Source: an uncultured Methanosarcinales archaeon (GTDB taxonomy: Archaea; Nanobdellota; Nanobdellia; Woesearchaeales; JAGVZT01). Taken from it: a stretch of 64,000 bases of DNA. Position 1 is the first letter of the stretch, and each line of letters opens with the position of its first letter. The notes beneath the pieces were generated by a model. The model worked only from the letters and a program-made list of their open reading frames with translations, was not told where the DNA came from and did not search any database. Location of the stretch: NCBI GenBank assembly GCA_964444505.1, contig CAYUHF010000003.1:28189-92188 (forward strand), in the 5' to 3' direction. Below, piece by piece: positions 2,830-23,125 of the stretch. The position numbers were made by a program, and so were the translations under genes.

Positions 2830-4482
2830 TTAGCCATAGACTTCCTGGCCGTTGGATGCGTATGGTTCTGTTGGACTTGTACTTGTTTCTGCTCCCCCAT
2901 ATGAATCAAACCTCTGGCAAGTGCATCCATATCCAAATCTGCTTGTCACCACACAAGGATCTCTATTCCAGACAACCACACAATTCCCGTAAGGGTCTGT
3001 TAATTTGCATGAAGGGCAGAAGCTTATTGAAGTGCTGTACTTCTTCTCATAACCCTCCAAATCTCCATCATCATCAACATCCATGGCAAGCCAAGAGCTT
3101 GAGTATAGTGGGTAATTCTTGCTCTGACCGTTTGTCCTGAAGATTACTTCATCCGGAGGATGTCCTACACACGCTCCATCAACACATTCAAAGTCACATG
3201 TTTCAACTTCTTCCACAGTTTCAGTATATTGACATGAGGCTTCAACTGTGTCTGGTTTATCACAATAATAGTCTCTATAATTATTGTTAACAGCATTTCC
3301 CACACAATACCTGCCTGTATAGGTGTCCTTAGGGCAGTCTGAATCTGAAGTACAATCCACAGGGAGGCATAGGCCATCGCTACATTTGGTATCTGTTGGA
3401 CAGTCATATTCTATTATGTCATAATAACCATCACCCTGAATCTCACAATTCCATCTTGTACTGGGATTAGTACAACCTTTATCCCCAGCATTACACTCGT
3501 CTTCAATAACACACTCCCCATTAACACATTCCTTCCCTGGGGGACAGGGTACAACTGTACTCCATTCAAGACATGTGTCATCGTCATAATCACCACAAGT
3601 GATATATCCATCACCAGAACATTCTCTCTCACCTACAGGAAAACACCCGTCTATGCAAGGCGGTGTATCTTCTTCACATTCAGATTGTATTGAATCACAA
3701 ATGTCATCATGTTGCCAAAAGAAAAGCCATTGTTTTAGTGCATTTATCTCTGTAACTAGACCAGTAACTGAAGATTCCATATCTGATCTCCAACCTTCCA
3801 ATGATGATATGCTATCCTCAATGTCATTTACTATCTCCTGGATATCTGATTTCCACGTTTGAAGAGAGGCTAGCTGGTTCCCCTGGGCTGTGTTCTCCGT
3901 TTCAACATCGGTAATCCTTCTAGATATGTCAGTGATATCAGTTTCTGAATATTGTCCCTTTCCTTCGATATATGATGCTGGACCATCCAAGTCGTATATT
4001 GCATGACCAGATACATAGTCAAGATATAACTTGATATTTAGTATCATATCTAAGTATTTATCATCAACACAATTCGTACAATGCATATAGGAACTACCAG
4101 TCAAATATACTTTTTTATCTGAAGAAAATGCGATGTTGTCGACGTGAAGTGTACCTGTAAAATAACCTTCGTATACGAACCCACTTTGTTCTGGAGTAAA
4201 ACTAACTGCTCCTGCAAAGGCATCTTCTTTTTCATTAAAATAGGATGTAGATAAACAGACCTCTGCATTTTGCATACTTGCAGTCTCTGAATCGTAATAT
4301 TCTGTTGAAAAACAAGTACTCATATAGTCTCCCGTAAAAAAAACATCTTGCTCCGTCGAAATATCGCTCCAGTCATACATTTCTATACTCTCATCACTCA
4401 TAGGAGAGGCCATAATTGTAGATGGAAAGAAACAGAACACACTAAGAAACATAATTACCAAAGAAAAAACTCTTTTGTTCAT
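2830..4482 (-). CDS. Secreted protein (550 aa) with an N-terminal non-Cys domain, a W-rich helical segment, Cys-rich repeats and the conserved C-terminal NGQEVYG domain
   Basis: The start was trimmed to the ATG at 4482 (MNKRVFSLVIMFLSVFCFFPSTIMA signal peptide, GGGGGTG SD 7 nt upstream). The C-terminal 105 aa are near-identical to the 5965 gene. The last ~50 nt are nearly identical at DNA level to 5965-6015. Confidence 0.8.
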   Translation of the reverse strand: MNKRVFSLVIMFLSVFCFFPSTIMASPMSDESIEMYDWSDISTEQDVFFTGDYMSTCFSTEYYDSETASMQNAEVCLSTSYFNEKEDAFAGAVSFTPEQSGFVYEGYFTGTLHVDNIAFSSDKKVYLTGSSYMHCTNCVDDKYLDMILNIKLYLDYVSGHAIYDLDGPASYIEGKGQYSETDITDISRRITDVETENTAQGNQLASLQTWKSDIQEIVNDIEDSISSLEGWRSDMESSVTGLVTEINALKQWLFFWQHDDICDSIQSECEEDTPPCIDGCFPVGERECSGDGYITCGDYDDDTCLEWSTVVPCPPGKECVNGECVIEDECNAGDKGCTNPSTRWNCEIQGDGYYDIIEYDCPTDTKCSDGLCLPVDCTSDSDCPKDTYTGRYCVGNAVNNNYRDYYCDKPDTVEASCQYTETVEEVETCDFECVDGACVGHPPDEVIFRTNGQSKNYPLYSSSWLAMDVDDDGDLEGYEKKYSTSISFCPSCKLTDPYGNCVVVWNRDPCVVTSRFGYGCTCQRFDSYGGAETSTSPTEPYASNGQEVYG

Positions 4483-4604
4483 AATCAACACCCCCAAAAT
4501 CTTTAATGATAAAAAAATATATATCTTTTTCCCTGTCACAATCTGATTAGGGACAACACAGATATTCAAGAAATTTTAAATACTCTTGTTTGTGGATTCA
4601 AGAT

Positions 4605-5795
4605 ATGACACACTATCTGATTGAGTTCAGATTCCAAGGAAAAGCTAAACATGAAATCAGAGAATTAGTCTATGATATAAGGAATAGATTCAATCTTCGT
4701 GGTAAGAGAGCAGTTCCCCATATAACCTTGGCAGGACCTTTAAGTACTAATGATGAAAAAAGATTAATTGGTGAATTAAATAGGCTATGCGGCAAATCTC
4801 CCCTTATGAGTTTCCAGGTTGAAGGTTTCAGTGTTTTCAAGGAAACTGGTGTTGTATTCCTTGATATTAAGCCAAGTGAAGAATTAAAGGAGTTTCGCTG
4901 GAAACTATCAAGAAAATTACAGTCATATTGTGAGTTGAGCAAATACGATTACGATAAAAATTTTGATTTCCATGCTACAATTGCTATGAAACTGCCAGAT
5001 AGAAAGCTTGAACAAATATCCAAATATCTAGAAGAAAAACACAAAGTTGGTTTTCGTCATATCCTGATCAGGGCAACAATAATTAAAAACAAGAAGATAT
5101 TGAGAGAATACGATTTTTTCCTTAGAAGGCCTCTTACGAGAAAGCTCGCATTAAACAGAAGAGTAAAGGCAAAAACCTTTTCTCTATTGGAAGCATATTT
5201 CATTGGCAGATTTAACCCAGATGAGTTTTTTGGTAGATTTAGCTTTAGGATAAAGAAGAAAAAAGCAATAGATAAGTTAATTGATATGTTCAGAAAACCC
5301 AAGATATTTATTACATCAGATCTGCATATGGATCACAAGAACATTATGAAATACTGTGTTAGACCTTTCTTAGCCGTGGAGGATATGAATCGTACTCTTG
5401 TAAACAACTGGAACAACACAGTAAGCAAAAAAGACACAGTGTACTTTCTGGGGGACTTAGCGTTCGGCAGAGGTAGCCGATCAACAGACTATTGGATGAA
5501 AAAGTTGAATGGTAAGATTGTTTTCCTTAAAGGCAACCATGATAAATCATCTAAGATAAAGTTTCATGACAATTACACTCTTGAATATCGTGGGTACAAA
5601 TTCTTTCTTACTCATGAACCCGAAAGCATTCCTGAAGAGTGGGATGGATGGGCTATCTGTGGGCATCATCACAATAACAAAATGGATGAATATCCTTTTT
5701 TTGATAGGGAAAATAGAAGATTCAATGTTTCAACAGAGTTGACTAAATTCTGTCCCATTGAGATGGATGATCTAATAAGACAGATTCAAGAGTGA
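4605..5795 (+). CDS. Two-domain phosphoesterase: N-terminal 2H (LigT-like, two HxTx motifs) fused to a C-terminal calcineurin-like metallophosphoesterase
   Basis: The 2H motifs are PHITLAG and FHATIAM. The MPP motifs are DLHMDH, GDLAFGRG, GNHD, THEPE and GHHH. The ATG at 4605 is preferred over the TTG at 4590. It is the only plus-strand gene inside the minus-strand island. Confidence 0.7.
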   Translation: MTHYLIEFRFQGKAKHEIRELVYDIRNRFNLRGKRAVPHITLAGPLSTNDEKRLIGELNRLCGKSPLMSFQVEGFSVFKETGVVFLDIKPSEELKEFRWKLSRKLQSYCELSKYDYDKNFDFHATIAMKLPDRKLEQISKYLEEKHKVGFRHILIRATIIKNKKILREYDFFLRRPLTRKLALNRRVKAKTFSLLEAYFIGRFNPDEFFGRFSFRIKKKKAIDKLIDMFRKPKIFITSDLHMDHKNIMKYCVRPFLAVEDMNRTLVNNWNNTVSKKDTVYFLGDLAFGRGSRSTDYWMKKLNGKIVFLKGNHDKSSKIKFHDNYTLEYRGYKFFLTHEPESIPEEWDGWAICGHHHNNKMDEYPFFDRENRRFNVSTELTKFCPIEMDDLIRQIQE

Positions 5796-5964: not shown

Positions 5965-7464
5965 CTAGCCATAGACTTCCTGGCCGTTGGAAGCGTATGG
6001 TTCTGTTGGACTGCTGGATGTTTCTGCTCCCCAATAATCTGTGAATCTTGAGCATGAGCATGAATATCCCATCCTGCTTGTTACAACACATGGGTCTCCG
6101 TTCCACACAATCACACAGTTTCCGTACGGGTCTGTCAGCCTGCATGATGGACAGAAGCTTATTGAAGTGCTGTATTTTTTCTGGTAGCCTTCCAATTCTC
6201 CGTTTCCATCTACGTCCATTGCCAGCCATGTTCCTGAATACAATGGATAATTTGCTGACTGGCCGTTTGTCCTGAAGATGACTGACTGTGATGTGTCGCA
6301 TTGTCCGTCAACACAATCTCCAGCGCATGTCTCTACCAGGACAGGATCTACACTGTCTGAACATGATGAATCCAGTGTTCCTGGATTTGAACATGTGTAT
6401 GTTCTCTGGTCTCTGTAGACGGCATTCCCGTCACAGTAATTTTCTGTGACCCATTCATCTGTTCCGCAGTCTGAGTCCTGTGTGCAGGTGAATGACTGGC
6501 ACTCACCGTCAACACATGCATCATTGCAGGTCATTATTGTTTCATCTGTGTCTGTGTATTCACATGCAGCAGATGGTGTTCCTGCGTTCTCGCAGGAATA
6601 ATCCCTGTAAGTGTCATGCACTTCAGCCCCGTCACAGTATCTTCCAAGATACCTGTCTGAAGGACAGTCTGAGTCTGAGTTGCAGCTCACTGCAACACAT
6701 TCTCCATCAAGGCATGCTTCTGCACAGTCTTCGACTAGTTCGTCTGTGTCTGTGTACTCGCATGATGACTGGAGTGTTCCTGGATTTGAACAATAATAAT
6801 CTCTTTGTGTATTGTAGACATCATTGTTCTGGCAGAACTCGCCAAGATAGGTGTCTGACAAACAATCTGAATCTGATTCACAGGCAACTCCTGAGCATGA
6901 GCCTGCTGCATCACACAAGTTTGAGTGTGATGAGAAACCAAGCCAGTCTTTTATTGCCTGGATTGTGTTATCAACAGTGGTCTTCCACTGCATCAGTAAA
7001 GATAAGTCCTGTTCTGCTGTTGTTTTCCAGTCTTCGAGTGCTGCAAGTCTTTCTTCAACATCTCCTGTCGGCTGGCAGTCAGCAACTGTTACATCTGTCA
7101 ATCCTCCAACATCTGTCTCACTCCCTCCTGAAAAACCATAGGTTCCTGAAAAAGAGGATGTGCCTGTTGACATTGGTGCCTGGACTGTATAAGTATGAGT
7201 TGTGTCCTCTGCTCCTGAGAGGATTGTCCAGAATATGTGTGGTGGATTTGTGGTTGAATCTCCGCCCCCGCTGTTCGTGACAGTAAATCCTGCCGGAACA
7301 ACTTCATCTATTAAATATGAAGATTCTGTATTGACATCCACATTCAAAGTCACGTCAAACTCTTCTCCCATGCAGGGTGTCTGCGTGGAAAAAGTTCTTG
7401 ACACTGTTCCTGCAAAAACTGCAGGTATCATCATCAAAAACATCAGATAATAAATTTTTTTCAT
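5965..7464 (-). CDS. Secreted protein (499 aa) with an Ig/CARDB-like N-terminal domain, a WK helical motif, 4 DSDC...NPGT Cys repeats and the C-terminal NGQEVYG domain
   Basis: The start was trimmed to the ATG at 7464 (MKKIYYLMFLMMIPAVFA, GGGGGAT SD). The unit DSDC(x)YLG.YC.GN.VY..RDY.C.NPGT is repeated four times. The C-terminal block ends EPYASNGQEVYG. Confidence 0.8.
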   Translation of the reverse strand: MKKIYYLMFLMMIPAVFAGTVSRTFSTQTPCMGEEFDVTLNVDVNTESSYLIDEVVPAGFTVTNSGGGDSTTNPPHIFWTILSGAEDTTHTYTVQAPMSTGTSSFSGTYGFSGGSETDVGGLTDVTVADCQPTGDVEERLAALEDWKTTAEQDLSLLMQWKTTVDNTIQAIKDWLGFSSHSNLCDAAGSCSGVACESDSDCLSDTYLGEFCQNNDVYNTQRDYYCSNPGTLQSSCEYTDTDELVEDCAEACLDGECVAVSCNSDSDCPSDRYLGRYCDGAEVHDTYRDYSCENAGTPSAACEYTDTDETIMTCNDACVDGECQSFTCTQDSDCGTDEWVTENYCDGNAVYRDQRTYTCSNPGTLDSSCSDSVDPVLVETCAGDCVDGQCDTSQSVIFRTNGQSANYPLYSGTWLAMDVDGNGELEGYQKKYSTSISFCPSCRLTDPYGNCVIVWNGDPCVVTSRMGYSCSCSRFTDYWGAETSSSPTEPYASNGQEVYG

Positions 7465-8051
7465 ACTGATCCCCCTTTCCATAATGTTATTGCGTCAAGC
7501 AAATTATTCATGTCTGCCTGGCCTGACTTCCAGACATTGATATAATCAAGAACTTCATCCATCTCAACTGAACTGCTGCAGTCTGTGTCTGAAAAGTGTG
7601 CTTTTGTCTCGTCTACCTGGCCGTTGCAGTTGTTGTCTTTGCCGTCGCAAAGCTCTGGTGCGCCTGGATAGACTTCTGGGTCGTAATTGTCGCAGTCTGT
7701 TTCTGTGTAGCCGTCTGCATCATAATCTGTTTCGCATGCATCTCCTACACCGTTGTTGTTTGAGTCCTGCTGGTCACGGTTCCATGTGTTCGGGCAGTTG
7801 TCCTGGTAATCAGGAAAACCGTCCAGGTCTTCATCATGTTCTGTGCAGCTGCAGCCATAAGCATCATTGCAGTACTGTGGAAGAGTCCACATTCCATTGT
7901 CCTTGACACACATGTAGCAGCACTCGCTCTCACAGACATAATAGCCTGAAAGAATCTGGCCCTGATCCATGCATACCCAGTAGTTAGCTGATACACTTGC
8001 AGCTAACACCAAGAAAGCAATTAATCCTATCAACATTCTTTTTGTTTTCAT
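7461..8051 (-). CDS. Secreted Ca-binding-like protein with thrombospondin type-3-like repeats and a CxGxDNxCxG motif
   Basis: The start was trimmed to 8051 (MKTKRMLIGLIAFLVLAASVSA). DGFPDYQDNCPNTWNRDQQDSNNNGVGDACETDYDADG fits the TSP3 DxDxDG...DNCP...N.DQ.D consensus. ELCDGKDNNCNGQVDE resembles the MopE-type putative metal-binding motif. A C-terminal WK motif (LDYINVWKSGQADMNNLLDAITLWKGG) is present. There is a 4-nt overlap with the upstream gene. Confidence 0.7.
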   Translation of the reverse strand: MKTKRMLIGLIAFLVLAASVSANYWVCMDQGQILSGYYVCESECCYMCVKDNGMWTLPQYCNDAYGCSCTEHDEDLDGFPDYQDNCPNTWNRDQQDSNNNGVGDACETDYDADGYTETDCDNYDPEVYPGAPELCDGKDNNCNGQVDETKAHFSDTDCSSSVEMDEVLDYINVWKSGQADMNNLLDAITLWKGGSV

Positions 8052-9912: not shown

Positions 9913-10403
9913 TCAGCTGGTGAGCTTTGTGAACTGTTTTCTTAGTGATTTGACCACTTCATTTGTAAGGTTAGCTTTAATCAATTTTATATTAACAACA
10001 AACCCTTCTGCCATCTCCATTAGTTCTTCTGCTTTTTTTCTGACCTCACCTTCAGAAACATAGTACTGTTTTTCGATTCTTTCTTCCTTCACCAGTGTGC
10101 TAGCCAGTTCCTTGTCAACCCCCTAAGAATCAGAATCGAACCCAGATGATTTTCTGATTTAATACCTACCTTGTACAGAAGAGAGATTAAAATATTGTAC
10201 ATTGTATAATATGACATAGCCACAGAGTTCTCATAAAGAGAATTTTCATACAACAATCTGGCAGATTTCATGCAATTTGCCGATTTCTCAGCATAAGAAT
10301 TTGAAATATTCTCTGAAGGATCAATAAGACTTAACTTTTCCTCCTGTCTTAATCTCGCCAAAAATCTTGTCATAGTACTCTTCAAAACCCTTAACAATGA
10401 CAT
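9913..10403 (-). pseudogene. HEPN-domain toxin paralogue 1, disrupted by a frameshift in a C5/G5 homopolymer
   Basis: ORF 10089..10403 ends ...ILILRGLTRNWLAHW*. A second frame continues GVDKELASTLVKEERIEKQYYVSEGEVRKKAEELMEMAEGFVVNIKLIKANLTNEVVKSLRKQFTKLTS*, which aligns with the C-terminal half of HEPN paralogue 2 (GLSKEDL...). A +1 shift at the ccccc run (10110-10114) restores a ~160-aa protein. Confidence 0.55.
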
Positions 10404-10974
10404 GGTTTTTTATGATCTCCTGAATAAGAGCCGAATTCTTATCGAATCTTCCGGATTTTACATTAATCCCAGAAAGTGTTTTTTCGATTTTTTCTTCAAC
10501 ATAAAGGTCGATATCACTATTCTTTCGTGCAGTACCTTTTGCATAAGAGCCGAAAAGAATTACCATGCTGTCTGTCTTGATATCAGCAAATATCACCCTT
10601 AGATGTGGATACTTGGTGAGTGTTTTTTCCAATACGTAGAGCTCTGAAGTCAGCATGTAGACCTTTGAAAACATATTTTTCTTTACAAAATAGACTTTGT
10701 TTCTGCCCTTTTTTTCAAAATCAACCACCTGCTTACAATAAAGAGAATTCAGTCTTCTGGATACAGTGGAATGTGGCTCATCTAAAATCCTTGCCAACTC
10801 CCTGACATGCATCTCCTTCTTAACCAAGTAATGCACAATCTCCAGCTCAATATTGTTTCTATTTTGAACCATATGTACCAATAATGAACCAATAGTATTT
10901 AATGTTTTTGCTTTATAGCCAAACTGCCCTTCTTTGCCGTAGCTGTAAGAAAAGTGATCAATTAGAATTATCAA
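10321..10974 (-). CDS. wHTH + minimal nucleotidyltransferase (MNT) antitoxin-type protein, copy 1
   Basis: The NTase motif is LFGSYAKGTARKNSDIDLYV (GS...DxD). An N-terminal winged HTH (HVRELARILDEPHSTVSRRLNSL) is present. There is an apparent TTG start. The gene overlaps both flanking HEPN genes. Confidence 0.7.
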   Translation of the reverse strand: MIILIDHFSYSYGKEGQFGYKAKTLNTIGSLLVHMVQNRNNIELEIVHYLVKKEMHVRELARILDEPHSTVSRRLNSLYCKQVVDFEKKGRNKVYFVKKNMFSKVYMLTSELYVLEKTLTKYPHLRVIFADIKTDSMVILFGSYAKGTARKNSDIDLYVEEKIEKTLSGINVKSGRFDKNSALIQEIIKNHVIVKGFEEYYDKIFGEIKTGGKVKSY

Positions 10975-11521
10975 CCATATCCCTTAGCTTATTCACAAAC
11001 AAAACAGCTTTTATCCTAAGATTCTCAACTTCCATACTATCAAAAAGCGTCTTAGTTGAATATGTGGCATTCTCTCTTTTATTCTTTGACTCAACATAAA
11101 ACAGAACATCCTCATAGTCCAAAAAACCTGAGACAATTATCAGATCTTCTTTGGACAGACCCTTCTTATAGAACTTTTCTATCAGAACCAATAGTGTAGC
11201 TTCATGGTTTTTGGAGGAATAACCTTTTGTCTGTATCAATGCCAGTGCTGCATGATAGCAGGCATAATAGCATCCAGTAATTGCCCAATCATAGAATTTA
11301 TTTTCAGAAGCCAGTTTGATAAACCTAAGGTTGTTCTCTGCTTTTGAAATATGCCCTTCTATTTCTGCATGGTCAATCTCCTGTTTATTCAGCAGCCCCT
11401 CATTTCTATACTTTTTGATCCTCCCACTCACAATTTCAGGGTTGTCCAATAGTCTAAGAAGCTCATATTCTCTCATCAAGGACCTCATAATATGAGATGT
11501 GATTGACGATCGGATAACCAC
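10958..11521 (-). CDS. HEPN-domain protein (toxin partner of MNT), copy 2
   Basis: The size and all-helical sequence fit, and it overlaps the MNT genes on both sides. It is paralogous to 9913..10403. A KNH variant replaces the canonical Rx4-6H motif (YSSKNHEATLLVL). The true start is probably at an internal Met (MRSLMREYELL). Confidence 0.55.
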   Translation of the reverse strand: MVIRSSITSHIMRSLMREYELLRLLDNPEIVSGRIKKYRNEGLLNKQEIDHAEIEGHISKAENNLRFIKLASENKFYDWAITGCYYACYHAALALIQTKGYSSKNHEATLLVLIEKFYKKGLSKEDLIIVSGFLDYEDVLFYVESKNKRENATYSTKTLFDSMEVENLRIKAVLFVNKLRDMVDNSN

Positions 11522-12131
11522 TGTTTATTGCAGACTGTATTACCTTATCCTCTTTAAGTTTAAGTTCAATAACAAAATCATTGTATTCAATCTGGAAAGT
11601 ATTAATCTTAACTGCAGCAAGAGCATCTGCTTCATTTTCTGCATCTTTTGTTGAAATCTTTTTGTTTGTGACAAGCAGTATATCCATATCAGACTCTTTC
11701 TTTTGCGTGCCTTTGGCAGTTGAACCAAAAAGAACCGCAAAGACAGGTACTTGGTCAAGCTTTTCCATGTATGCCTTTATCGCTTTTTTTCTTATTCTGG
11801 GCAGTTTCTGATACCTTTCAACATCAAAAGAAGTAAACACAAGATACGCTTGTCTTGTCTTCTTAACTCTAAAGAGTTTTAGATTCCCTTTCCTGTCTGA
11901 CTTTAGTATTTGGTCCTCTTCCAGTCTTTCAAGAAATCTGGTTACGCTTGGTAGATGCATATCTGCCCTTCTTGCAATTTCTCTTAGATGCAATTCCCTG
12001 CCCATATCATCATAGAATAACTGCATTATTTCCATATAGCCGTTTTTTAATATTGTTACCATTATTATATCAATCGTTATAATATCTTTATCATATATAA
12101 ACCTTTCTAACTGTTTCATATGATTAATCAA
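11463..12131 (-). CDS. wHTH + minimal nucleotidyltransferase (MNT), copy 2
   Basis: LFGSTAKGTQKKESDMDILLV matches the NTase motif. An N-terminal HTH (LHLREIARRADMHLPSVTRFLERL) is present. The protein is paralogous to 10321..10974. Confidence 0.7.
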   Translation of the reverse strand: MINHMKQLERFIYDKDIITIDIIMVTILKNGYMEIMQLFYDDMGRELHLREIARRADMHLPSVTRFLERLEEDQILKSDRKGNLKLFRVKKTRQAYLVFTSFDVERYQKLPRIRKKAIKAYMEKLDQVPVFAVLFGSTAKGTQKKESDMDILLVTNKKISTKDAENEADALAAVKINTFQIEYNDFVIELKLKEDKVIQSAINSGYPIVNHISYYEVLDERI

Positions 12132-13419: not shown

Positions 13420-16400
13420 TTAAACAACAATGATTGGCCTGTGCCTTACCCTTCTCAAGCCTTCATTGTATAATTCAAGCTTGACCATGTAAAACCCTGG
13501 CCTTGCATCATCAGGTATTTCCAGCAACAAGTCTCTTGTCAACTCACCGTCAGCATTCACACTCATTGGACCGAGTCTTCTGCTCTTGATTCCAAGTCCC
13601 TGGACAAATGCCTCTATTTCTAGATTCTTCATCTCACAATAACCCATGTTCCTGAAGTTTACTGTTATCTGGAGCTCTTCTCCCGGCTCTACAACCTCAT
13701 CATACACAAACCCGATTCTGTCGATTCTTATCTTTGCCTTTGGCTCGTTTATGTAGTTGTAGTCGCACTCTGTTTTTTCATACTCGCACATGCAGTCGCT
13801 GCAGATATCTATTGTTGTCGGGTTGTCATCAAAGCAGTCTGCATCTGTTGCACACTCTGCTCCGCATCTTCCAGCTACACACTGTGTTTTTGTCTCAAAT
13901 TCACCAAAAACACACATACACTGTGAACTGCAGTCACCATAGCCCTGTGCTACTGACAGCTTGTTTCCAACACACTCTTCTTCTTTTGCAAAGCAGTTTT
14001 CATTCCCGGAAGTTCCAGGTAGTTCACATTCCTCTCCTGCATCAATGTTTCCATCACCGCAGTAAGGAACATACTCGTGCTCACACATACAACCGCTGCA
14101 TGTGTCTATTGTGTGCTCGTTCAGGTCATTGCAGTCATCATCTGAGTCACACTCAGCACCGCATGATCCCTGCACACATTCTGCTACTGGCCATACATCC
14201 TGCAGACAGCCGCAGTTTGGATCACAGTAACCAAATTCATCCCTGGTTGCTGTTTTCTTGCCTTCGCACTTTTCTGTGCTTTGTTCACAATATGAGTTGT
14301 CCTGTGTATCAGGCAGCTCACATTCTTCACTTGATGAATCAACCATCCCGTCACCACAATATCCATTGTGGGTGTATTCACATACACAGCTGTCTGTACA
14401 GACATCATCTGTTAATGGGTCTGAATCATCACAGTCTGAATCTGTCTCGCACTCTGCATTACATCTTGACATGTCACATGTATGAGTAAGTGTATCATCT
14501 TCTGTTGTACATTCACCTGGCTCTACACATTCTGATTCAAAACCTTCTCTTTTGTCCCATGTGTATGGGTTGCTATCAGGTATATTGTTACATGTCATTA
14601 TCTCTTCTATATCATATTCTGAGCAGTCTATTGGCTCTCCTGGTACACAGAATGCTGAATCATTATCTTCTTCACATGACTCCTGGCCATTGCAGCCAAG
14701 TCCGTCATCACAGTCCTGTTTTAGTGTATCTGAAAAAACACACTCTGCATTAGAACATGTCCCATCTCTTCCCCAGTGTTCTGTTCCTACACAGTAGCCG
14801 CTGTCAAGCTCATTGCAATCCTCTGTGGTTGTTTCTGTTTCACATTGGTTTTCTATACATACTCCTTGGTCATGTTTTACAAAGTCTCCATCACAGTAAT
14901 CATCATCTAAATAATCACAGTCTGAGTCTTCCATACATTCATATGGCTGGCACATCTCATCACAGCCATTTGTTCCTGGTGCAAACTCATCACATTCTGG
15001 TGCTGAAAGACATCCTGCATAGTCATCTTCACAGTGGTTGTCCTGCAGTTTGCAGTTTGCATCACAGTAGTCCTGCAGATATGGTGAACCATGCTCATCA
15101 CATGAAGCCAAAACTGTATTTGGCAGCTCACACTCCTCTCCAGCATCAGGATCAACTATTCCGTCACCACAGTAGCCATTATGGGTGTATTCACATGTAC
15201 AGCTGTCTGTACAAATATCATCTGTTAAAGGATTTGAATCATCACAATCAGAGTTTCTCTCGCACTCTGCATTACATCTTGAGATGTCACAGCTGTGCGT
15301 TATCATTTCGTCTCCAGTTGTACATTCTCCTGGTTCTACACATTCTGATTCAAAACCTTCTCTTTTGTCCCACGTGTATGGGTTGCTGTCAGGCATATTG
15401 TTACATGTCATTATCTCTTCTATATCATATTCTGAGCAGTCTATTGGCTCTCCTAAAACACACTCTGCCTGGTGATCAGCTCCTGGTGTTTCTTCACATG
15501 TCTCCTGGCCGTTGCAAGCAAGCCCGTCATCACAACTATAACTGTCTGAATCTATTATTACACACTTTGCAGAGTCACATGAATACAATTCTGTTACAAT
15601 GGAATTTCCTGAACAGTATTCTGTGTCAAGCTCACTGCAGTCCTCTGTTGTGGTCTCAACTTCACATTTATTTTCTATACATACTCCTTGGTCGTGCCTG
15701 ATCAAATCTCCAGCACAGTAATCATCATCCAGATAATCACAGTCTGAATCATCCATACACTCGTATGGCTGGCATGTCAAGTCACAGCCTTCTGTTCCAG
15801 GGATCACTTCATCACACTCTGGGTGAGCTGAACATCCTGGATAATCATCTTCACAGTGCTCATCCTGAAGCTGGCAGTTCGCATCACAATAGTCTCCAAG
15901 ATAGCTGCTTCCATAATCACATGATGCCAAAGCTGTATTTGGCCTCTCACATTCTTCGCCTGCATCAGGATCAACTATGCCGTCTCCACAGTAGCCTTGC
16001 TTAATATGCTCACATTCGCATTCTACACATATATCATCAGTAAGAGGATTTGAATCGTCACAATCAGAGTTTTTCTCGCATTCTGCATTACACCTTGATA
16101 TATCGCATGCGTGTGTAATTATTCCTCCCCATGTTGTACATTGGCCTGGCTCTATACATTCTGATTCAAAGCTTTCTCTATAGTCCCATGAAAATGGATT
16201 ATCATCTGGTATATTGTTGCAGGTTGAAATCTCTTCTTTATCATTATATGAACAGTCGATTGGTTCTCCTGGTACACAGAATGCTGTATCAAGGTCTTCT
16301 TCACATGACTCCTGGCCATTGCATGCAAGGCCATCATCACATTGTTCAACTAAACTTGTTGAAACTGAACACTGTGCATTACTGCATGTTCCATCATCTT

Positions 16401-17676
16401 CCCAGACTTTTGAATTTGAGCAATATTCCTGATCATACTGGTTGCAGTCCTCAGTTGTTGTTTCAACTTCACATTCAAAATTAATACATACTCCTTCATC
16501 ATGTTTTACAAAGTCACCAGTACAGTAATCATCATCTAAATAATTACAGTCTGAATCATACTGGCATTCTGTGCATCTTGGGTCGTTGTAGCTTACTGTT
16601 GGGTTTGAACAACTGTTCTCCTCGCACATACAGTTTCTGCAGTCATTAACTTTGTCTGAATAATCATAATAATCATTTCCAACACACCCGTCAAGATGGT
16701 CGCATTCTGTATTGTCACAGTCATAGTTTGAGTCACAATCAGCACCACATCTGCCCTCAACACACTGGAAATTAAAACTGTCAAATATACATCCGCAGTA
16801 GTGGCCGCAGTCTCCATAATAGTCTCTTGTTCCCAGTTTGTTTCCTTCACACCTTTCTGTGCTCTGGACACAATAGTGGTTGTTGTAGGTATCTGGATAT
16901 TCACAACTCTCTGTATAGTCTACATGTCCGTCACCACAGTAAGACTGCTGTTCTATTGTAAAGCTGCTGTCTGCACATGGAATGTTGTGGTCTTTGTAGA
17001 ACATTGCATAATATATTCCTGTCTGGGTTGGTGTGTATTCCCAGTCCCAGTAGCCTTTCTGGCCTGCTTTGTGATGGTTACCCATCCTATCTGGTCCTCC
17101 AAGACTCACTATAGTGCCTGAAGGATTTCTTACTTTAACAATTACATTTGTATAAGGAACATATGATCTTATTCTTATGTAGAATTTCTGGTCTAAAGAA
17201 GGTGTTACCTGGTTTCCATACTGGTCAACAAAGAGCATCTCTTCGTGTGCATCTGGGTCGCAACTCTGCACTTCACCGCCGTCTCCCACCCACACAATAA
17301 AGTCATTAACTGTGTTGTCATATCCAGGAGCATTGAATATATCTATCTGCTGTGTCTGGTCTCCATTTGCATTTATACAAAAAGACCCTGATGTCTTGAC
17401 TTCAGGTGTTGAATCCCTGCACTCTATGCCTGTATCTCCCTGGCAGGTGTGTCTTTCTACTCTCCAGCCGCTGTAAGGTACTGTACAGCACATTGTGTCT
17501 TCATTACATCCAATACAGTTTGGATCATTTTCATATGCACCGCAGATATTTACTATCTCTCCCCATGCACCGCTCTGGCTCTGGTGAGGTATTGGCGGGT
17601 TCGGGTATCCTATTACTGCCTGTAAGGCTATTAGAAATAATACTGAGTAAATTACAAATCTTGTTTTTTTATCCAT
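13420..17676 (-). CDS. Giant secreted cysteine-rich modular surface protein 1 (1418 aa), with 3 copies of a ~270-aa module and a C-terminal CARDB-like beta-sandwich
   Basis: The start was trimmed to the ATG at 17676 (MDKKTRFVIYSVLFLIALQAV signal peptide). Repeated motifs are CMDDSDCDYLDDDYC, CDDGLACNGQETCEE and CGDGIVDPDAGEECE (Myxococcus-type Cys-rich repeat-like). The C-terminus GEELQITVNFRNMGYCEMKNLEIEAF...GFYMVKLELYNEG is CARDB-like. Confidence 0.85.
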   Translation of the reverse strand: MDKKTRFVIYSVLFLIALQAVIGYPNPPIPHQSQSGAWGEIVNICGAYENDPNCIGCNEDTMCCTVPYSGWRVERHTCQGDTGIECRDSTPEVKTSGSFCINANGDQTQQIDIFNAPGYDNTVNDFIVWVGDGGEVQSCDPDAHEEMLFVDQYGNQVTPSLDQKFYIRIRSYVPYTNVIVKVRNPSGTIVSLGGPDRMGNHHKAGQKGYWDWEYTPTQTGIYYAMFYKDHNIPCADSSFTIEQQSYCGDGHVDYTESCEYPDTYNNHYCVQSTERCEGNKLGTRDYYGDCGHYCGCIFDSFNFQCVEGRCGADCDSNYDCDNTECDHLDGCVGNDYYDYSDKVNDCRNCMCEENSCSNPTVSYNDPRCTECQYDSDCNYLDDDYCTGDFVKHDEGVCINFECEVETTTEDCNQYDQEYCSNSKVWEDDGTCSNAQCSVSTSLVEQCDDGLACNGQESCEEDLDTAFCVPGEPIDCSYNDKEEISTCNNIPDDNPFSWDYRESFESECIEPGQCTTWGGIITHACDISRCNAECEKNSDCDDSNPLTDDICVECECEHIKQGYCGDGIVDPDAGEECERPNTALASCDYGSSYLGDYCDANCQLQDEHCEDDYPGCSAHPECDEVIPGTEGCDLTCQPYECMDDSDCDYLDDDYCAGDLIRHDQGVCIENKCEVETTTEDCSELDTEYCSGNSIVTELYSCDSAKCVIIDSDSYSCDDGLACNGQETCEETPGADHQAECVLGEPIDCSEYDIEEIMTCNNMPDSNPYTWDKREGFESECVEPGECTTGDEMITHSCDISRCNAECERNSDCDDSNPLTDDICTDSCTCEYTHNGYCGDGIVDPDAGEECELPNTVLASCDEHGSPYLQDYCDANCKLQDNHCEDDYAGCLSAPECDEFAPGTNGCDEMCQPYECMEDSDCDYLDDDYCDGDFVKHDQGVCIENQCETETTTEDCNELDSGYCVGTEHWGRDGTCSNAECVFSDTLKQDCDDGLGCNGQESCEEDNDSAFCVPGEPIDCSEYDIEEIMTCNNIPDSNPYTWDKREGFESECVEPGECTTEDDTLTHTCDMSRCNAECETDSDCDDSDPLTDDVCTDSCVCEYTHNGYCGDGMVDSSSEECELPDTQDNSYCEQSTEKCEGKKTATRDEFGYCDPNCGCLQDVWPVAECVQGSCGAECDSDDDCNDLNEHTIDTCSGCMCEHEYVPYCGDGNIDAGEECELPGTSGNENCFAKEEECVGNKLSVAQGYGDCSSQCMCVFGEFETKTQCVAGRCGAECATDADCFDDNPTTIDICSDCMCEYEKTECDYNYINEPKAKIRIDRIGFVYDEVVEPGEELQITVNFRNMGYCEMKNLEIEAFVQGLGIKSRRLGPMSVNADGELTRDLLLEIPDDARPGFYMVKLELYNEGLRRVRHRPIIVV
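14361..16572 (-). repeat. Array of three ~810-nt coding tandem modules inside giant gene 1
   Basis: The module boundaries are derived from the repeated YECM(D/E)DSDCDYLDDDYC anchors at aa ~375, 646 and 919. Long stretches are identical in DNA to modules of giant gene 2. For example, 14907-15155 and 19080-19358 give identical alternate-frame peptides. Confidence 0.75.
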
Positions 17677-17723
17677 TTTTATTGTCCACCTCAAATGTTA
17701 TAACCATTAAGTGACTACTATCA

Positions 17724-17916: not shown

Positions 17917-20900
17917 TCAAATTACAATGATTGGCCTGTGCCTTACTCTTCTCAAGCCTTCATTGTATAATTCAAGCTTGACCATGTAAAACCCTGGCCT
18001 TGCATCATCAGGTATTTCCAGCAACAAGTCTCTTGTCAACTCACCGTCAGCATTCACACTCATTGGACCGAGTCTTCTGCTCTTGATTCCAAGTCCCTGG
18101 ACAAATGCCTCTATCTCAAGGCTCTTCATCTCGCAGTAGCCCATGTTTTTGAAATTGACAACTATCTGGAGCTCTTCGCCGGGTCTTACTATCTCATCAT
18201 GCACAAAGCCGATTCTGTCAATTTTTATCTTGGCTTTTGGGTCTTTTATATAGTTGTAGTCGCACTCTGTTTTTTCATACTCACACATGCAGTCGCTGCA
18301 GATATCTATTGTTGTTGGGTTGTCATCAAAGCAGTCTGCATCTGTTGCACACTCTGCCCCGCATCTTCCAGCTACACACTGTAGTTCTGATTCAAACTCG
18401 CCAAAGGTACACTTGCACTGATAACTGCAGTCACCGTAGCCCTGTGCTACTGACAACTTGTTTCCAACACACTCTTCTTCTCTTGCAAAGCAGTTTTTGT
18501 TGTCTGATGTTCCAGGTAGTTCACACTCTTCACCTGATGCTGTATCAACTATCCCATCACCACAGTATCCAATGTGGGTGTATTCACATACACAGTCTTT
18601 ACAGACCTCATCTGTTAATGGGTCTGAATCATCGCAGTCTGAGTTTGTTTCGCACTCTGCATCACACTCTGAAATATCACATGTGTGCTCTATTGTTTCA
18701 TCTTCTGTTGTACATTCTCCTGGCTCCACACATTCTGACTCAAAGCTTTCTCTATAGTCAAATGTGTATGGGTTATCATCAGGTATATTATTACAGGTTG
18801 AAATTCCTTCTATATCATATTCTGAGCAGTCTATTGGCTCTCCAGATACACAGAATGCTGAATCATTATCTTCTTCACATGACTCCTGGCCATTGCAGCC
18901 AAGTCCGTCATCACACTCTTCCTGCATATAATCGTTAACAATACACTGGGCATCTGAACAGGTTCCTTCTGATACCCAAATCTCTGTGCCCTGGCATGAT
19001 TCTTCGTCATACTGGCTGCAATCTTCTGCTGTGGTCTCGACTTCACATTGGTTTTCTATACATACTCCATTATCATGTTTTACAAAGTCTCCATCACAGT
19101 AATCATCATCCAGATAGTCACAGTCTGAGTCTTCCATACACTCATATGGCTGGCACATCTCATCACAGCCATTTGTTCCTGGTGCAAACTCATCACATTC
19201 TGGTGCTGAAAGACATCCTGCATAGTCATCTTCACAGTGGTTGTCCTGCAGTTTGCAGTTTGCATCACAGTAGTCCTGCAGATATGGTGAACCATGCTCA
19301 TCACATGAAGCCAAAACTGTATTTGGCAGCTCACACTCCTCTCCAGCATCAGGGTCAACTATTCCGTCACCACAATATCCATTGTGGGTGTATTCACATA
19401 TACAACTGTCTGTACAAATATCATCTGTCAATGGGTCTGAATTATCGCAGTCTGAATCTGTTTCGCACTCTGCATTACATCTTGATATGTCACATGTGTG
19501 AGTAAGTGTATCATCTTCTGTTGTACACTCCCCTGGCTCTACACATTCTGATTCAAAACCTTCTCTTTTGTCCCATGTGTATGGGTTGCCATCAGGTATA
19601 TTATTACAAGTTAATATTTCTTCTATATCATATTCTGAGCAGTCGATTGGCTCTCCTGATACACACTCTGCCTGGTGATCAGCTCCTGGTGTTTCTTCAC
19701 ACGTTTCCTGGCCATTACATGCAAGGCCATCATCACAATTATAACTGCCTGAACCTGCTATTACACATTCTGCATTGCTGCATGTATGGTCCTCTGTTAT
19801 AATGGAAGTTCCTGAACAGTATTCTGTGTCAAGCTCATTACAATCCTCTGTGGTTGTTTCTGTTTCACATTTGTTTTCTATACATACCCCATGGTCATGT
19901 TTGACCAAGTCACCTTCACAATAATCATCATCCAGATAATCACAGTCTGAATCATCCATACACTCGTATGGCTGGCAGGTCAAATCACAGCCAGCTGTCC
20001 CTGGGATCACTTCATCACAATCTGGATGTGCTGTACACCCTGGATAGTCATCTTCACAGTGGTCATCCTGGAGCTTACAGTTTGAATCGCAGTAGTCCTG
20101 CAGATAATCTTCCCCATAATCACATGATGCCAGGACTGTGTTTGGAAGCTCACACTCTTCACCTGCATCTGGATCAACTATGCCGTCACCACAGTAGCCT
20201 TGCTTAATATGCTCACATTCGCATTCTACACATATATCATCAGTAAGAGGATTTGAATCGTCACAATCAGAGTTTTTCTCGCATTCTGCATTACATCTTG
20301 AGATATCGCATGCGTGTGTAATTATTCCTCCCCATGTTGTACATTCTCCTGGTTCAATACATTCTGATTCAAAGCTTTCTCTATAGTCCCATGTGTATGG
20401 ATTATCATCTGGTATATTGTTACAGGTTGAAATCTCTTCTTTATCATTATCTGAACAGTCTATTGGTTCTCCTGGTAAACAGAATGCTGTAGCAAGGTCT
20501 TCTTCACATGACTCCTGGCCATTGCATGCAAGGCCATCATCACAGTCCTGTTTTAATGTATCTGAAACAACACACTCTGCATTAGAACATGTCCCGTCTC
20601 TTCCCCAGTGTTCTGTTCCTACACAGTAGCCGCTGTCAAGTTCATTACAATCATTTGTGGTTGTTTCTGTTTCACATTTGTTTTCTATACATACCCCTTG
20701 GTCATGTTTGACCAAGTCACCTTCACAATAATCATCATCTAAATAATCACAGTCTGAGTCATCCATGCACTCGTATGGCTGGCATGTCAAGTCACAGCCA
20801 GCTGTCCCAGGAATTAATTCATCACATTGAGAATCAGCTGTACATCCTGGATAATCATCTTCACAGTGGTTGTCCTGCAGTTTGCAGTTTGCATCACAGT

Positions 20901-23115
20901 AATCCTGCAGATAATCTTCCCCATAATCACATGATGCCAGGACTGTGTTTGGAAGCTCACACTCTTCACCTGCATCTGGATCAACTATGCCGTCACCACA
21001 GTAGCCTTGCTTAATATGCTCACATTCGCATTCTACACATATATCATCAGTAAGAGGATTTGAATCGTCACAATCAGAGTTTTTCTCGCATTCTGCATTA
21101 CATCTTGAGATATCGCATGCGTGTGTAATTATTCCTCCCCATGTTGTACATTCTCCTGGTTCAATACATTCTGATTCAAAGCTTTCTCTATAGTCCCATG
21201 TGTATGGATTATCATCCGGTATATTGTTACAGGTTGAAATCTCTTCTTTATCATTATCTGAGCAGTCTATTGGTTCCCCTGGTACACAGAATGCTGTATC
21301 AAGGTCTTCTTCACACGTTTCCTGGCCATTGCATGCAAGGCCATCATCACATTGTTCAACTAAACTTGTCGCTACTGAACATTCTGCATTATCACAAATG
21401 CCGTCATCTTCCCAAACCTGGGTTCCTGAACAATATTCCTGATCATACTGGTTGCAATCCTCTGTTGTTGTTTGCACCTGACATGCATAATCAACACACA
21501 CTCCTTGGTCATGCTTAACTAAATCACCCACACAGTAATCATTATCTAAATAATTACAATCTGAATCATCCTGGCATTCTGTACATCTTGGGTCATCTTC
21601 ATAAATAGTTGGATTTGAACAGCTGTTATCCTCGCACATACAATTTCCCATGCAGTCATTAACCTTGTCTGAATAGTCATAATAATCTTTTCCAATACAC
21701 CCATCAAGATGGTCGCATTCTGTTGCAAAACAGTCATCATCCGAATCACACTGTGCTCCGCAAACATTCTGGACACAGTACTCGTTCTGCGGCTCTGCAA
21801 AGCAGTCAACAGAACAGTTTTCACAAGTGCAGTCTGAAAAACAGCTGTTGTCGCATGACTCTCTTACAACTGTTGAGTCCAGTACTTTATCAGAATCATA
21901 TTCAACCAGTTTGTTTCCATTACAATAATCTTCATAGGTTTCTTCACATGAGTTTTCAGGACAATCACCATCTGAATCACACTGTGCTTCGCAGCTGTCC
22001 TCTACACACAGGGCAGTGTTCCAGTTGTCATCTACACATCCGCATGATGAATCACAATATCCAAACTCATCTCTTGTTGCTGTTTTTAGGCCAACACATT
22101 TTTTTGTGGATTGGTCGCAATAAGTATTATCTTCTGTTTCCGGAAGCTCACATTCTTCATCTGGATCAACAAAACCGTCTCCACAGTAAGCAAGTGGCTG
22201 GCACTCTTGGTCACAACCTCCTGTTCCAGGGATTAATTCATCGCAATCAGGATGAGAGCTGCATCCAGGATAGTCATCCTCACAATGTTCATCCTGCAGC
22301 TGGCAGTTGGAATCACAGTAGTCTCCAAGATAACTGTTTCCATGATCACATGTTGAGAGTGCATGGTTTGGAGGGTCGCACTCTTCTCCTTCTTCTATAA
22401 TTCCGTTTCCGCATACTGGCTCTGTTATTTCAAAATGCAGGTATTTGTCCTGCCATATTGTGGACTCACACTGGCATTCATTAGGCAGCCATGTATGAAC
22501 AGAGAAGTTATGTTCTCCTGGTTCTGTGATTGTATAAGTATAAGTGAATTCTTTTTTGACTCCGAATGGAATCTGGGCCATCCCGCTTTCCTGAAGTTCA
22601 TCGTCTGCATAGAAATGCACATCTACTGTTGATGCAAAATGAGGATAAACAAGATCTGATGGTACTGACTGCGGACCTGTTTCAGCAGGAAAGTCATGTG
22701 ATGCTTCAACTTTTGCTGTTATTGTGACTGTGTCACCAATTTCAGGGTTTTGCGGCTCCATTGTAATTTCTCTTACAGGAGCTGCACAGTCCGTTGCTTT
22801 TTCAAAATCAACATTATATGACCATGGACCTTCTCCTGTCTGGTCATCTGTGCTAACAATATATGTCTGGGGCATGTAGCAATCTTTGTAGTTGTACTCT
22901 CCAAAGTACTGTTGTCCAGAACCATCCAGAACATACTCGTTTGAACTGCCGTAGTAATTACCCAGCTCTTCTGTCAGATAATAACAGTCATCACCCCAGC
23001 ATTTCCACACATTTGTGTGAAAGTCTGAATCAGATTCTACAATTATTCTCACTGGATAAGCTGAAACTGATGCAACCAGAATCAGCATCCAAAATAAGTA
23101 AACAAGTTTTTTCAT
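17917..23115 (-). CDS. Giant secreted cysteine-rich modular surface protein 2 (1733 aa), with 4 module copies, an N-terminal Ig-like region and the same C-terminal CARDB-like domain
   Basis: The start was trimmed to the ATG at 23115 (MKKLVYLFWMLILVASVSAYP). GAGGTC lies 10 nt after the stop of the upstream gene. The last ~320 nt are nearly identical to 13420-13740. Confidence 0.85.
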   Translation of the reverse strand: MKKLVYLFWMLILVASVSAYPVRIIVESDSDFHTNVWKCWGDDCYYLTEELGNYYGSSNEYVLDGSGQQYFGEYNYKDCYMPQTYIVSTDDQTGEGPWSYNVDFEKATDCAAPVREITMEPQNPEIGDTVTITAKVEASHDFPAETGPQSVPSDLVYPHFASTVDVHFYADDELQESGMAQIPFGVKKEFTYTYTITEPGEHNFSVHTWLPNECQCESTIWQDKYLHFEITEPVCGNGIIEEGEECDPPNHALSTCDHGNSYLGDYCDSNCQLQDEHCEDDYPGCSSHPDCDELIPGTGGCDQECQPLAYCGDGFVDPDEECELPETEDNTYCDQSTKKCVGLKTATRDEFGYCDSSCGCVDDNWNTALCVEDSCEAQCDSDGDCPENSCEETYEDYCNGNKLVEYDSDKVLDSTVVRESCDNSCFSDCTCENCSVDCFAEPQNEYCVQNVCGAQCDSDDDCFATECDHLDGCIGKDYYDYSDKVNDCMGNCMCEDNSCSNPTIYEDDPRCTECQDDSDCNYLDNDYCVGDLVKHDQGVCVDYACQVQTTTEDCNQYDQEYCSGTQVWEDDGICDNAECSVATSLVEQCDDGLACNGQETCEEDLDTAFCVPGEPIDCSDNDKEEISTCNNIPDDNPYTWDYRESFESECIEPGECTTWGGIITHACDISRCNAECEKNSDCDDSNPLTDDICVECECEHIKQGYCGDGIVDPDAGEECELPNTVLASCDYGEDYLQDYCDANCKLQDNHCEDDYPGCTADSQCDELIPGTAGCDLTCQPYECMDDSDCDYLDDDYCEGDLVKHDQGVCIENKCETETTTNDCNELDSGYCVGTEHWGRDGTCSNAECVVSDTLKQDCDDGLACNGQESCEEDLATAFCLPGEPIDCSDNDKEEISTCNNIPDDNPYTWDYRESFESECIEPGECTTWGGIITHACDISRCNAECEKNSDCDDSNPLTDDICVECECEHIKQGYCGDGIVDPDAGEECELPNTVLASCDYGEDYLQDYCDSNCKLQDDHCEDDYPGCTAHPDCDEVIPGTAGCDLTCQPYECMDDSDCDYLDDDYCEGDLVKHDHGVCIENKCETETTTEDCNELDTEYCSGTSIITEDHTCSNAECVIAGSGSYNCDDGLACNGQETCEETPGADHQAECVSGEPIDCSEYDIEEILTCNNIPDGNPYTWDKREGFESECVEPGECTTEDDTLTHTCDISRCNAECETDSDCDNSDPLTDDICTDSCICEYTHNGYCGDGIVDPDAGEECELPNTVLASCDEHGSPYLQDYCDANCKLQDNHCEDDYAGCLSAPECDEFAPGTNGCDEMCQPYECMEDSDCDYLDDDYCDGDFVKHDNGVCIENQCEVETTAEDCSQYDEESCQGTEIWVSEGTCSDAQCIVNDYMQEECDDGLGCNGQESCEEDNDSAFCVSGEPIDCSEYDIEGISTCNNIPDDNPYTFDYRESFESECVEPGECTTEDETIEHTCDISECDAECETNSDCDDSDPLTDEVCKDCVCEYTHIGYCGDGIVDTASGEECELPGTSDNKNCFAREEECVGNKLSVAQGYGDCSYQCKCTFGEFESELQCVAGRCGAECATDADCFDDNPTTIDICSDCMCEYEKTECDYNYIKDPKAKIKIDRIGFVHDEIVRPGEELQIVVNFKNMGYCEMKSLEIEAFVQGLGIKSRRLGPMSVNADGELTRDLLLEIPDDARPGFYMVKLELYNEGLRRVRHRPIIVI
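18423..21576 (-). repeat. Array of four ~810-nt coding tandem modules inside giant gene 2
   Basis: Anchors lie at aa ~569, 838, 1107 and 1381 of the ORF. ORF-track alternate-frame peptides recur at 19968, 20775 and 15765. Confidence 0.75.
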
Positions 23116-23125
23116 ATTAAGACCT

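Follow-up and report, generated by a model that had tools for sequence, protein, structure and literature searches.

What reaction would be carried out by a protein that joins, in one chain, a 2H phosphoesterase and a calcineurin-like binuclear metallophosphoesterase (MPP)? The question is raised by a gene on the plus strand, positions 4605 to 5795, of a 64,000-nucleotide stretch of DNA from an uncultured archaeon (GTDB order Woesearchaeales; contig CAYUHF010000003.1, positions 28,189 to 92,188). This whole stretch is called the window below. The gene is complete, with an ATG at 4605 and a stop codon at 5793-5795 in the list of open reading frames (ORFs), and its product is a fusion protein of 396 amino acids (aa), here called 2H-MPP, to which a public protein (P0001) is identical. 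It encodes a real, intact two-domain enzyme, uncharacterised in the searched literature. By analogy with studied enzymes of both folds we tentatively propose, with rather less than even confidence, that 2H-MPP is a stand-alone bifunctional enzyme that would remove 2',3'-cyclic phosphate in two steps, the substrate being RNA 3' ends.

The two catalytic domains

The N-terminal part of the protein (aa 1-182, positions 4605..5150; all domains and motifs described here lie on the plus strand) is a YjcG-like 2H phosphoesterase domain. It matches PF13563 (2_5_RNA_ligase2) over aa 26-145 (E-value = 4e-18, 66 bits against a cut-off of 27) and PF02834 (LigT_PEase) with 29 bits against a cut-off of 23.3. 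The C-terminal part (aa 232-396, 5298..5792) is a binuclear MPP domain matching PF00149 (Metallophos) over aa 233-354 (30.2 bits against 21.5) and PF12850 (Metallophos_2) with 29.2 bits against 27. All matches in this Pfam check of the LigT/2_5_RNA_ligase2 and Metallophos profiles exceed the curated cut-offs, so that the preliminary description of this DNA, made from the letters alone, was right in seeing both domains in a single ORF with their catalytic residues intact.

The two motifs that had been read as those of 2H enzymes, HITL and HATI, are present at aa 39-42 (H39-I-T-L, 4719..4730) and aa 123-126 (H123-A-T-I, 4971..4982). Across 50 aligned homologues, which share 44-64% of their residues with the window protein, H39 and H123 are invariant and T125 is conserved in at least 90%. 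The preliminary description would have been contradicted by an N-terminal half of some other fold or by the loss of catalytic histidines; the 2H match stands and neither histidine is lost in any of the 50 sequences. With an H-x-T/S motif in each lobe, a profile match and a 2H fold, the N-terminal half belongs to the 2H superfamily. Further invariant residues are specific to the family: E168, Y169 and D170 in an R-E-Y-D-F segment within the last strands of the domain (5103..5117), and R156 and R179 elsewhere in it. R156 is aligned with an arginine of YjcG.

Bacillus subtilis YjcG (PDB 2D4G) is the nearest solved relative of the 2H half, at about 20-23% identity. It is a bacterial protein of about 170 aa with one domain and no fused phosphatase, and its own activity is unassayed in the literature searched. 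The window protein falls outside the YjcG family proper (NF010223 equivalog, 32.1 bits against a cut-off of 129), and its match to the ThpR/LigT branch is below threshold (TIGR02258, 27 bits against 65.7). In the predicted model, the 2H half is structurally nearer to RNA and nucleotide 2',3'-cyclic phosphodiesterases (CPDases) than to 2',5'-phosphodiesterases or Acb1. By analogy with such enzymes, the 2H domain is probably a cyclic phosphodiesterase.

All five motifs of the calcineurin-like MPP superfamily (DxH, GD, GNH[DE], H and GHxH) are present and conserved in the C-terminal half, which places it in that superfamily. Motif I is S-D-L-H-M-D-H (5316..5336), with D239, H241 and H244 invariant and conserved in phage relatives too. 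Motif II is G-D-L-A-F-G-R-G (5451..5474), with G283 and D284 invariant. Motif III is G-N-H-D (aa 310-313, 5532..5543), with H312 invariant and G310 conserved in at least 90%. Motif IV is H337, also invariant, within T-H-E-P (5610..5621), and motif V is G-H-H-H-N-N (5661..5678; GHHH at aa 353-356), with G353 and H356 invariant and H354 conserved in at least 90%. The motif set had been described earlier as complete; DxH, GNHD, the single histidine and GHxH are indeed there, but motif II reads GDLAFGRG and not GDxxxRG, being a GDxxDR variant without the second aspartate.

Within the superfamily, a strong profile match and the closest fold assign the MPP half to the aq_1665/COG4186/phrog_547 clade. 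The match to phrog_547 has an E-value of 2.6e-43, all motifs being common to both. The small MPPs of this clade (aq_1665 of Aquifex aeolicus, PDB 1XM7; COG4186; cd07390; PHROG 547) are stand-alone bacterial and phage proteins of about 165-195 aa, of which none is reported fused to a 2H domain and no function is reported.

The AlphaFold model of the full protein is confident as one unit (predicted local distance difference test, pLDDT, 92.4; predicted template modelling score, pTM, 0.84), and the structures closest to it are B. subtilis YjcG and Aquifex aq_1665. A sequence search with the family profile recovers the PDB entries of the same two proteins (E-values of 1.4e-14 and 6e-8). Between the domains lies a basic linker (aa 183-231, 5151..5297), modelled with lower confidence (pLDDT 74-85 for aa 200-230) and varying in length from 19 to 101 aa across the family.

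The MPP half by itself could also be read as an enzyme of DNA ends with 3'-phosphatase or nuclease activity, on the model of PdeM/MPE or of enzymes associated with Mre11, working in DNA repair or replication. PdeM (TIGR04123) is the best NCBIfam match of the C-terminal half (E-value = 3.8e-8), and in several phage lineages a related MPP gene lies beside Mre11/SbcCD, helicase, primase or DNA polymerase A genes. PdeM identity itself is rejected: the match scores 33 bits against a cut-off of 150, and neither an ATP-dependent ligase nor Lhr was found as a neighbour in the window and about 45 distinct loci. The 2H mechanism needs ribose 2'-OH chemistry, which has no counterpart in DNA. We regard a role on DNA ends as very unlikely.

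Distribution and gene neighbourhoods

The preliminary description held the fusion to be uncommon, which the distribution contradicts. In a scan of one genome per species, relatives are encoded in at least 526 GTDB species genomes. At 90% identity there are 335 clusters of relatives, of which the best 120 all have the same full-length architecture. A profile search of 1.84 billion representatives gave 934 clusters (50% identity, E-value<=1e-30). The species genomes come from DPANN lineages, Methanosarcina, many Methanoregulaceae, the cultured Methanosphaerula subterraneus, Thaumarchaeota, Hadarchaeota, Bathyarchaeia and Archaeoglobaceae, as well as from bacteria of the Dehalococcoidia/Chloroflexota. 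The relatives carry such source names as "2'-5' RNA ligase family protein" and [quoted passage not shown]. 2H-MPP is therefore a widespread, mainly archaeal family. Since the fusion has been kept across at least 526 species genomes with both catalytic sets conserved, the two activities presumably work together.

No conserved operon accompanies the family. ORFs were called in about 85 loci with relatives and clustered all-against-all, and no neighbour family was found to cross clades. Synteny is seen within clades: genes for an MBL+rhodanese protein, a PNPOx-like protein and a HAD protein in the Methanoregulaceae, and LemA in the Dehalococcoidia. A Pfam scan of 80 non-redundant neighbours from about 30 loci gave 105 families, none of which occurs in more than two members.

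This bears on a rival explanation that arises from the surroundings of the gene. The preliminary description had pointed to HEPN/MNT cassettes nearby, and 2H-MPP could be their dedicated partner, healing the 2',3'-cyclic phosphate ends made by those very HEPN RNases; ends of this kind are what HEPN RNases leave. The two pairs, each of a winged helix-turn-helix (wHTH)-MNT and a HEPN gene, are real (10089-12131, minus strand). The functional tie is another matter: 4.3 kb and four ORFs separate the 2H-MPP gene from the cassettes, it is on the opposite strand to them, and it appears to have a TATA-like box of its own. Neither HEPN nor NTP_transf_2 is recurrent among the 80 neighbours, and the 2H-MPP family is conserved in clades and loci without such cassettes.

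In the relatives' loci, homologues of the window's four cassette proteins were found only in a woesearchaeotal one (L010). There, a wHTH-MNT homologue (E-value = 1.8e-9) and a HEPN gene stand directly upstream of 2H-MPP on the same strand, the HEPN ORF, taken from its first possible start codon, overlapping the 2H-MPP ORF by 19 nt. Archaeal genomes of this kind contain HEPN/MNT cassettes in great number, and one would expect some of them to adjoin the gene now and then. The HEPN association is incidental or at most occasional, 2H-MPP is not a component of the cassettes, and a dedicated partnership is highly improbable.

Two side observations concern ORFs of this kind. The short HEPN ORF of the window (10089-10403, minus strand, 104 aa) overlaps the upstream MNT ORF (10321-10974, minus strand) by 83 nt when its earliest possible start codon is used; in the public annotation the product has 94 aa, and the true start is probably further downstream. 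In a locus of the Methanoregulaceae (L012:7564-7995), a 143-aa ORF without a Pfam match, HEPN-like by eye only, shares 6 nt with the start of the 2H-MPP gene.

A proposed two-step reaction and its candidate substrates

For the 2H-MPP enzyme we infer both activities, their order and the substrate as follows. In the first step, the metal-independent 2H domain would open a ribose 2',3'-cyclic phosphodiester by hydrolysis, catalysed by its two HxT motifs, and so form a phosphomonoester. The analogy of ThpR, CPDase and CNPase suggests that this monoester would be the 2'-phosphate. In the second step, the C-terminal binuclear-metal MPP would hydrolyse the monoester to leave a 2',3'-diol. This order of 2H opening followed by MPP dephosphorylation, already suggested in the preliminary description, is plausible with both domains and all catalytic residues in place. 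The substrate would be the 3' end of an RNA cut by metal-independent RNases, and the healed 3'-OH could then be used by the CCA-adding enzyme, tailing enzymes, 3' exonucleases or ATP-dependent ligases. The enzyme, which is found in many archaea, would be self-sufficient and separately transcribed.

Each of the two steps has a precedent. ThpR converts RNA with a terminal 2',3'-cyclic phosphate (RNA>p) to RNA-2'-PO4, and a partner phosphomonoesterase that would finish the removal has been raised as a speculation only (PMC4201822). ThpR has no phosphomonoesterase in the same polypeptide, unlike 2H-MPP, in which exactly those two activities would be joined. For the second step, the MPP enzymes CthPnkp, from C. 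thermocellum, and lambda phosphatase hydrolyse both 2',3'-cyclic phosphates and monoesters (PMC2190708). The likeness to Pnkp lies in the proposed outcome, removal of a 2',3'-cyclic phosphate or monoester from an RNA 3' end, for which CthPnkp uses an MPP domain. The differences are that the phosphatase of T4 Pnkp is of the HAD type, that 2H-MPP has no kinase or ligase partners and that its task would be split between two unrelated catalytic domains. Pfam finds no kinase or ligase domain in the window protein, and none is conserved near archaeal members, so that 2H-MPP is not a heal-and-seal system of the Pnkp kind.

We favour RNA 3' ends as the substrate because of the phage modules in which the MPP occurs, the basic charge of the protein in lineages with acidic proteomes and partners of a macromolecular type. 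As for the phages, tblastn finds phrog_547 in 1,562 GenBank phage genomes, and an RNA ligase gene adjoins the MPP in 5 of the 13 phage lineages inspected. The ligase is of the Rnl1 type in EdH4 (E. coli; L088), PaP1 (Pseudomonas; L091), Vibrio 166E36-1 (L092) and Vibrio Thalassa (L095), and of the Rnl2 type in DSS3_PM1 (L100), where the MPP is directly upstream of it. All four Rnl1-type neighbourhoods also contain a P-loop kinase of about 135 aa resembling PNK (Pfam AAA_33). Judged by gene content, MPP, AAA_33 kinase and RNA ligase together look like a Pnkp-like heal-and-seal layout with a different phosphatase.

Several gene arrangements around these MPPs may be recorded here. In EdH4 the MPP/kinase/ligase set stands beside a Sir2 gene and a tRNA cluster. 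In a nanoarchaeotal locus (L074:7968-9890), a stand-alone MPP with 51% identity to the C-terminal half of the window protein lies 30 bp from a convergent AAA_33 P-loop kinase gene, and a second, larger MPP (Metallophos_3) follows.

Regarding charge, the protein is basic where the local proteome is not: its isoelectric point (pI) is 9.1 in Methanosarcina, against 6.0 for neighbouring genes, and 9.3 in Dehalococcoidia, against 7.6.

A number of observations weigh against RNA end healing by 2H-MPP. Members of the Methanoregula type are not basic (pI 6.8), and the proteome of the window organism is itself basic (median pI 9.2); the high pI is therefore only partly useful as evidence of RNA binding. 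The phage link to RNA ligase is lineage-specific: the other 8 of the 13 lineages show DNA-replication or unannotated contexts, there are phages in which the MPP sits among DNA-replication or nucleotide and NAD genes, and among the 80 closest IMG/VR loci an Rnl1-like ligase occurs in 3 and a kinase in 4. The archaeal genes carry no fused RNA-binding domain, kinase or ligase, nor is any of these conserved in their neighbourhood. Each half also occurs as a separate protein among close relatives. The 2H-only relatives (P0151 and P0182, on contigs of 1-1.5 kb) have no MPP immediately downstream, and the MPP-only ones (L074, L045 and L034) have no adjacent 2H gene. Split genes thus lend no Rosetta-stone support, which comes only from the fusion itself.

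The auxiliary residues of the characterised enzymes are a further point on the same side. E. coli ThpR/LigT and its relatives (PH0099, the Deinococcus radiodurans CPDase) are RNA 2',3'-cyclic phosphodiesterases. Their motifs are expanded in ThpR to HxTxxF and HxTxxR, and both Phe48, which stacks on the base, and Arg130 are essential (PMC4201822). These residues have no counterpart at the corresponding positions of the window protein, which reads HITLAG and HATIAM. ThpR-type enzymes also hydrolyse 2',3'-cAMP, so that the fold fails to separate RNA ends from free nucleotides. Finally, the searched literature gave no biochemistry for the 2H-MPP family, YjcG or aq_1665, nor any study of the fusion, of the activity of YjcG or of the function of aq_1665/COG4186.

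The same two-step chemistry might instead serve to clean up small molecules of nucleotide or NAD metabolism, the main rival to RNA repair and a serious though somewhat less likely one. In one variant, 2',3'-cyclic nucleoside monophosphates (2',3'-cNMPs) from RNA turnover would be converted to 2'-nucleoside monophosphates and then to nucleoside and inorganic phosphate. In the other, ADP-ribose 1'',2''-cyclic phosphate, a by-product of Tpt1/KptA, would pass through ADP-ribose-1''-phosphate to ADP-ribose. A known enzyme for both kinds of cyclic substrate is the Arabidopsis CPDase (1FSI/1JH6), of the plant/yeast type, which is eukaryotic and single-domain and acts on ADP-ribose 1'',2''-cyclic phosphate and 2',3'-cNMPs. 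The downstream phosphatase of the yeast CPDase pathway is a macro-domain protein and not an MPP. No Tpt1/KptA gene was seen adjoining archaeal 2H-MPP genes.

Several neighbours fit such a metabolic role. A NUDIX domain is fused to the C-terminus of one member of the family (P0213). At another locus a NUDIX gene is located 103 nt upstream of 2H-MPP on the same strand (L007:7596-7898), with genes for Asp dehydrogenase, QPRTase and NAD kinase also near, and at a third an ADP-ribosylglycohydrolase gene is found 24 nt upstream of a family member (L017:6337-7971). Among the 80 IMG/VR loci (L103-L182), the recurrent neighbours of the viral MPP are DNA polymerase A (15), ThyX (15) and a second MPP (9), and NUDIX, a nicotinamidase-like (isochorismatase-like) gene and NAPRTase are found in 8 each. 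In PaP1 and Thalassa the MPP/kinase/ligase set is directly beside PRPP-synthase-like and NamPT-like genes. The hydrolysis of 2',3'-cAMP by ThpR and the absence of an RNA-binding module from 2H-MPP agree with small substrates as well. For 2H and calcineurin-like enzymes in phage neighbourhoods, either role has been suggested, the resolution of RNA>p or the processing of ADPr>P (PMC9503650).

The NUDIX, ADP-ribose and NAD links are each confined to single archaeal loci or proteins and form no conserved neighbourhood, though, and in phages a common counter-defence region may simply bring NAD-salvage and RNA-repair genes together. A macromolecular substrate accords better with proteins that are strongly basic within acidic proteomes and with the AN1, DnaJ and peptidase partners described below.

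The preliminary description also allowed that the enzyme might degrade a cyclic-nucleotide signal. The targets would be immune or second-messenger nucleotides such as cyclic oligoadenylates, A2>p, cGAMP-like dinucleotides or 2',5'-oligoadenylates, and the role would be to switch off host defence or, on a mobile element, to act against it. Defence-like surroundings do occur: the Methanosarcina copy is flanked by two type I restriction-modification systems, GmrSD and a transposase, phages are rich in MPPs of this clade, and elsewhere there are sporadic neighbours such as HEPN genes, AbiEii (L018), an HD protein (L008) and AAA ATPases. In contrast, a search of 2H-MPP against PADLOC-DB 2.0 gave 0 families at E-value<=1, and none of about 45 distinct loci showed a neighbour of the CRISPR, CBASS or cyclase kind. 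The gene of the Methanoregulaceae sits in conserved housekeeping synteny. The 80 best viral contigs carry only the MPP half, besides partial low-identity matches in L127 and L135, and the structural proximity of the 2H half to 2',3'-CPDases argues against this role too. Signal degradation is improbable.

Another set of partners is covered by none of these explanations. C-terminal AN1 zinc fingers are present in P0089, P0112 and P0118, the latter two with a C-terminal hydrophobic tail in addition, read as a membrane anchor. One member is fused to a C-terminal J-domain (P0127), and another protein combines AN1, MPP and a transglutaminase-like peptidase (P0205). Genes of the HExxH-peptidase/Rho_N/AN1-like kind adjoin family members at L006:6992-7999 and L013:9211-10101, a strong AN1 protein is encoded 92 nt downstream at L017:9301-10638, and a DnaJ-AN1 gene lies 1.8 kb away at L007:5352-6236. 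These partners point to a link with proteostasis or quality control.

Since independent AN1, J-domain and peptidase partners recur in the family, 2H-MPP might be the arm that cleans nucleic-acid ends in an archaeal quality-control pathway physically coupled to proteolysis and chaperones, an idea to which we give a low probability. It could, for example, restore the 3'-OH on tRNAs or RNAs with 2',3'-cyclic phosphates from stalled translation complexes or RNA-protein adducts. The tRNA-repair step of eukaryotic ANKZF1/ELAC1 has a comparable outcome.

The gene in its window and its significance

Homologues share the N-terminus M-[TV]-H-Y-L-I-E-F, read as MTHYLIEF in the window protein, and the ATG at 4605 is therefore taken as the start. 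An in-frame TTG at 4590 was considered and is unlikely to be the start, given where the homologue N-termini align. About 27 nt before the ATG, direct reading of the sequence finds TTTTAAATA (4574..4582, plus strand), an element like the archaeal TATA box. The distance fits usual archaeal promoter spacing, and the element thus suggests, by its position, that the 2H-MPP gene is an independent, near-leaderless transcription unit; the region around it is AT-rich, and a chance match is possible. The GC content of the gene (0.35) is ordinary for the window.

On either side of the 2H-MPP gene is a gene for a secreted cysteine-rich protein, the two being paralogues, and the earlier remark that 2H-MPP is the only plus-strand gene holds for the first 24.5 kb (1-24.5 kb) of the window. 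Three paralogues surround it (1524-2597, 2830-4569 and 5965-7482, all minus strand), with a signal peptide, many cysteines and no Pfam match in the precomputed annotation. Their common C-terminal module of about 110 aa contains the motifs FRTNG, NYPLYS, WLAMDVD, LEGY, TSISFCPSC, LTDPYGNCV and VWN, in the pattern ...FRTNG.S.NYPLYS..WLAMDVD.DG.LEGY.K.Y.TSISFCPSC.LTDPYGNCV.VWN...PTEPYASNGQEVY. Two giant ORFs follow on the minus strand (13420-17694, 1424 aa, and 17917-23280, 1787 aa). The shorter one encodes a protein rich in cysteine and aspartate that contains internally repeated modules and resembles secreted or surface proteins. The first 24 kb are a minus-strand block of surface-protein genes, made up of the giant ORFs and the flanking paralogues. 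Rfam at gathering thresholds found no tRNA, rRNA or other known RNA family in the whole 64-kb window (1-64000).

The HEPN context of the window adds nothing to the significance of 2H-MPP, which presents a known kind of activity in a new architecture and involves no new principle of biology. Ends with 2',3'-cyclic phosphate are the universal product of metal-independent RNases, among them toxins, anticodon nucleases, the splicing endonuclease and enzymes of the RNase T2 type, and the ways in which archaea clear them, besides ligation by RtcB, are poorly known. The activities proposed for 2H-MPP would bear on three uncharacterised groups at once: the fusion itself, the YjcG-like 2H proteins and the very common phage and bacterial MPPs of the aq_1665/phrog_547 kind.

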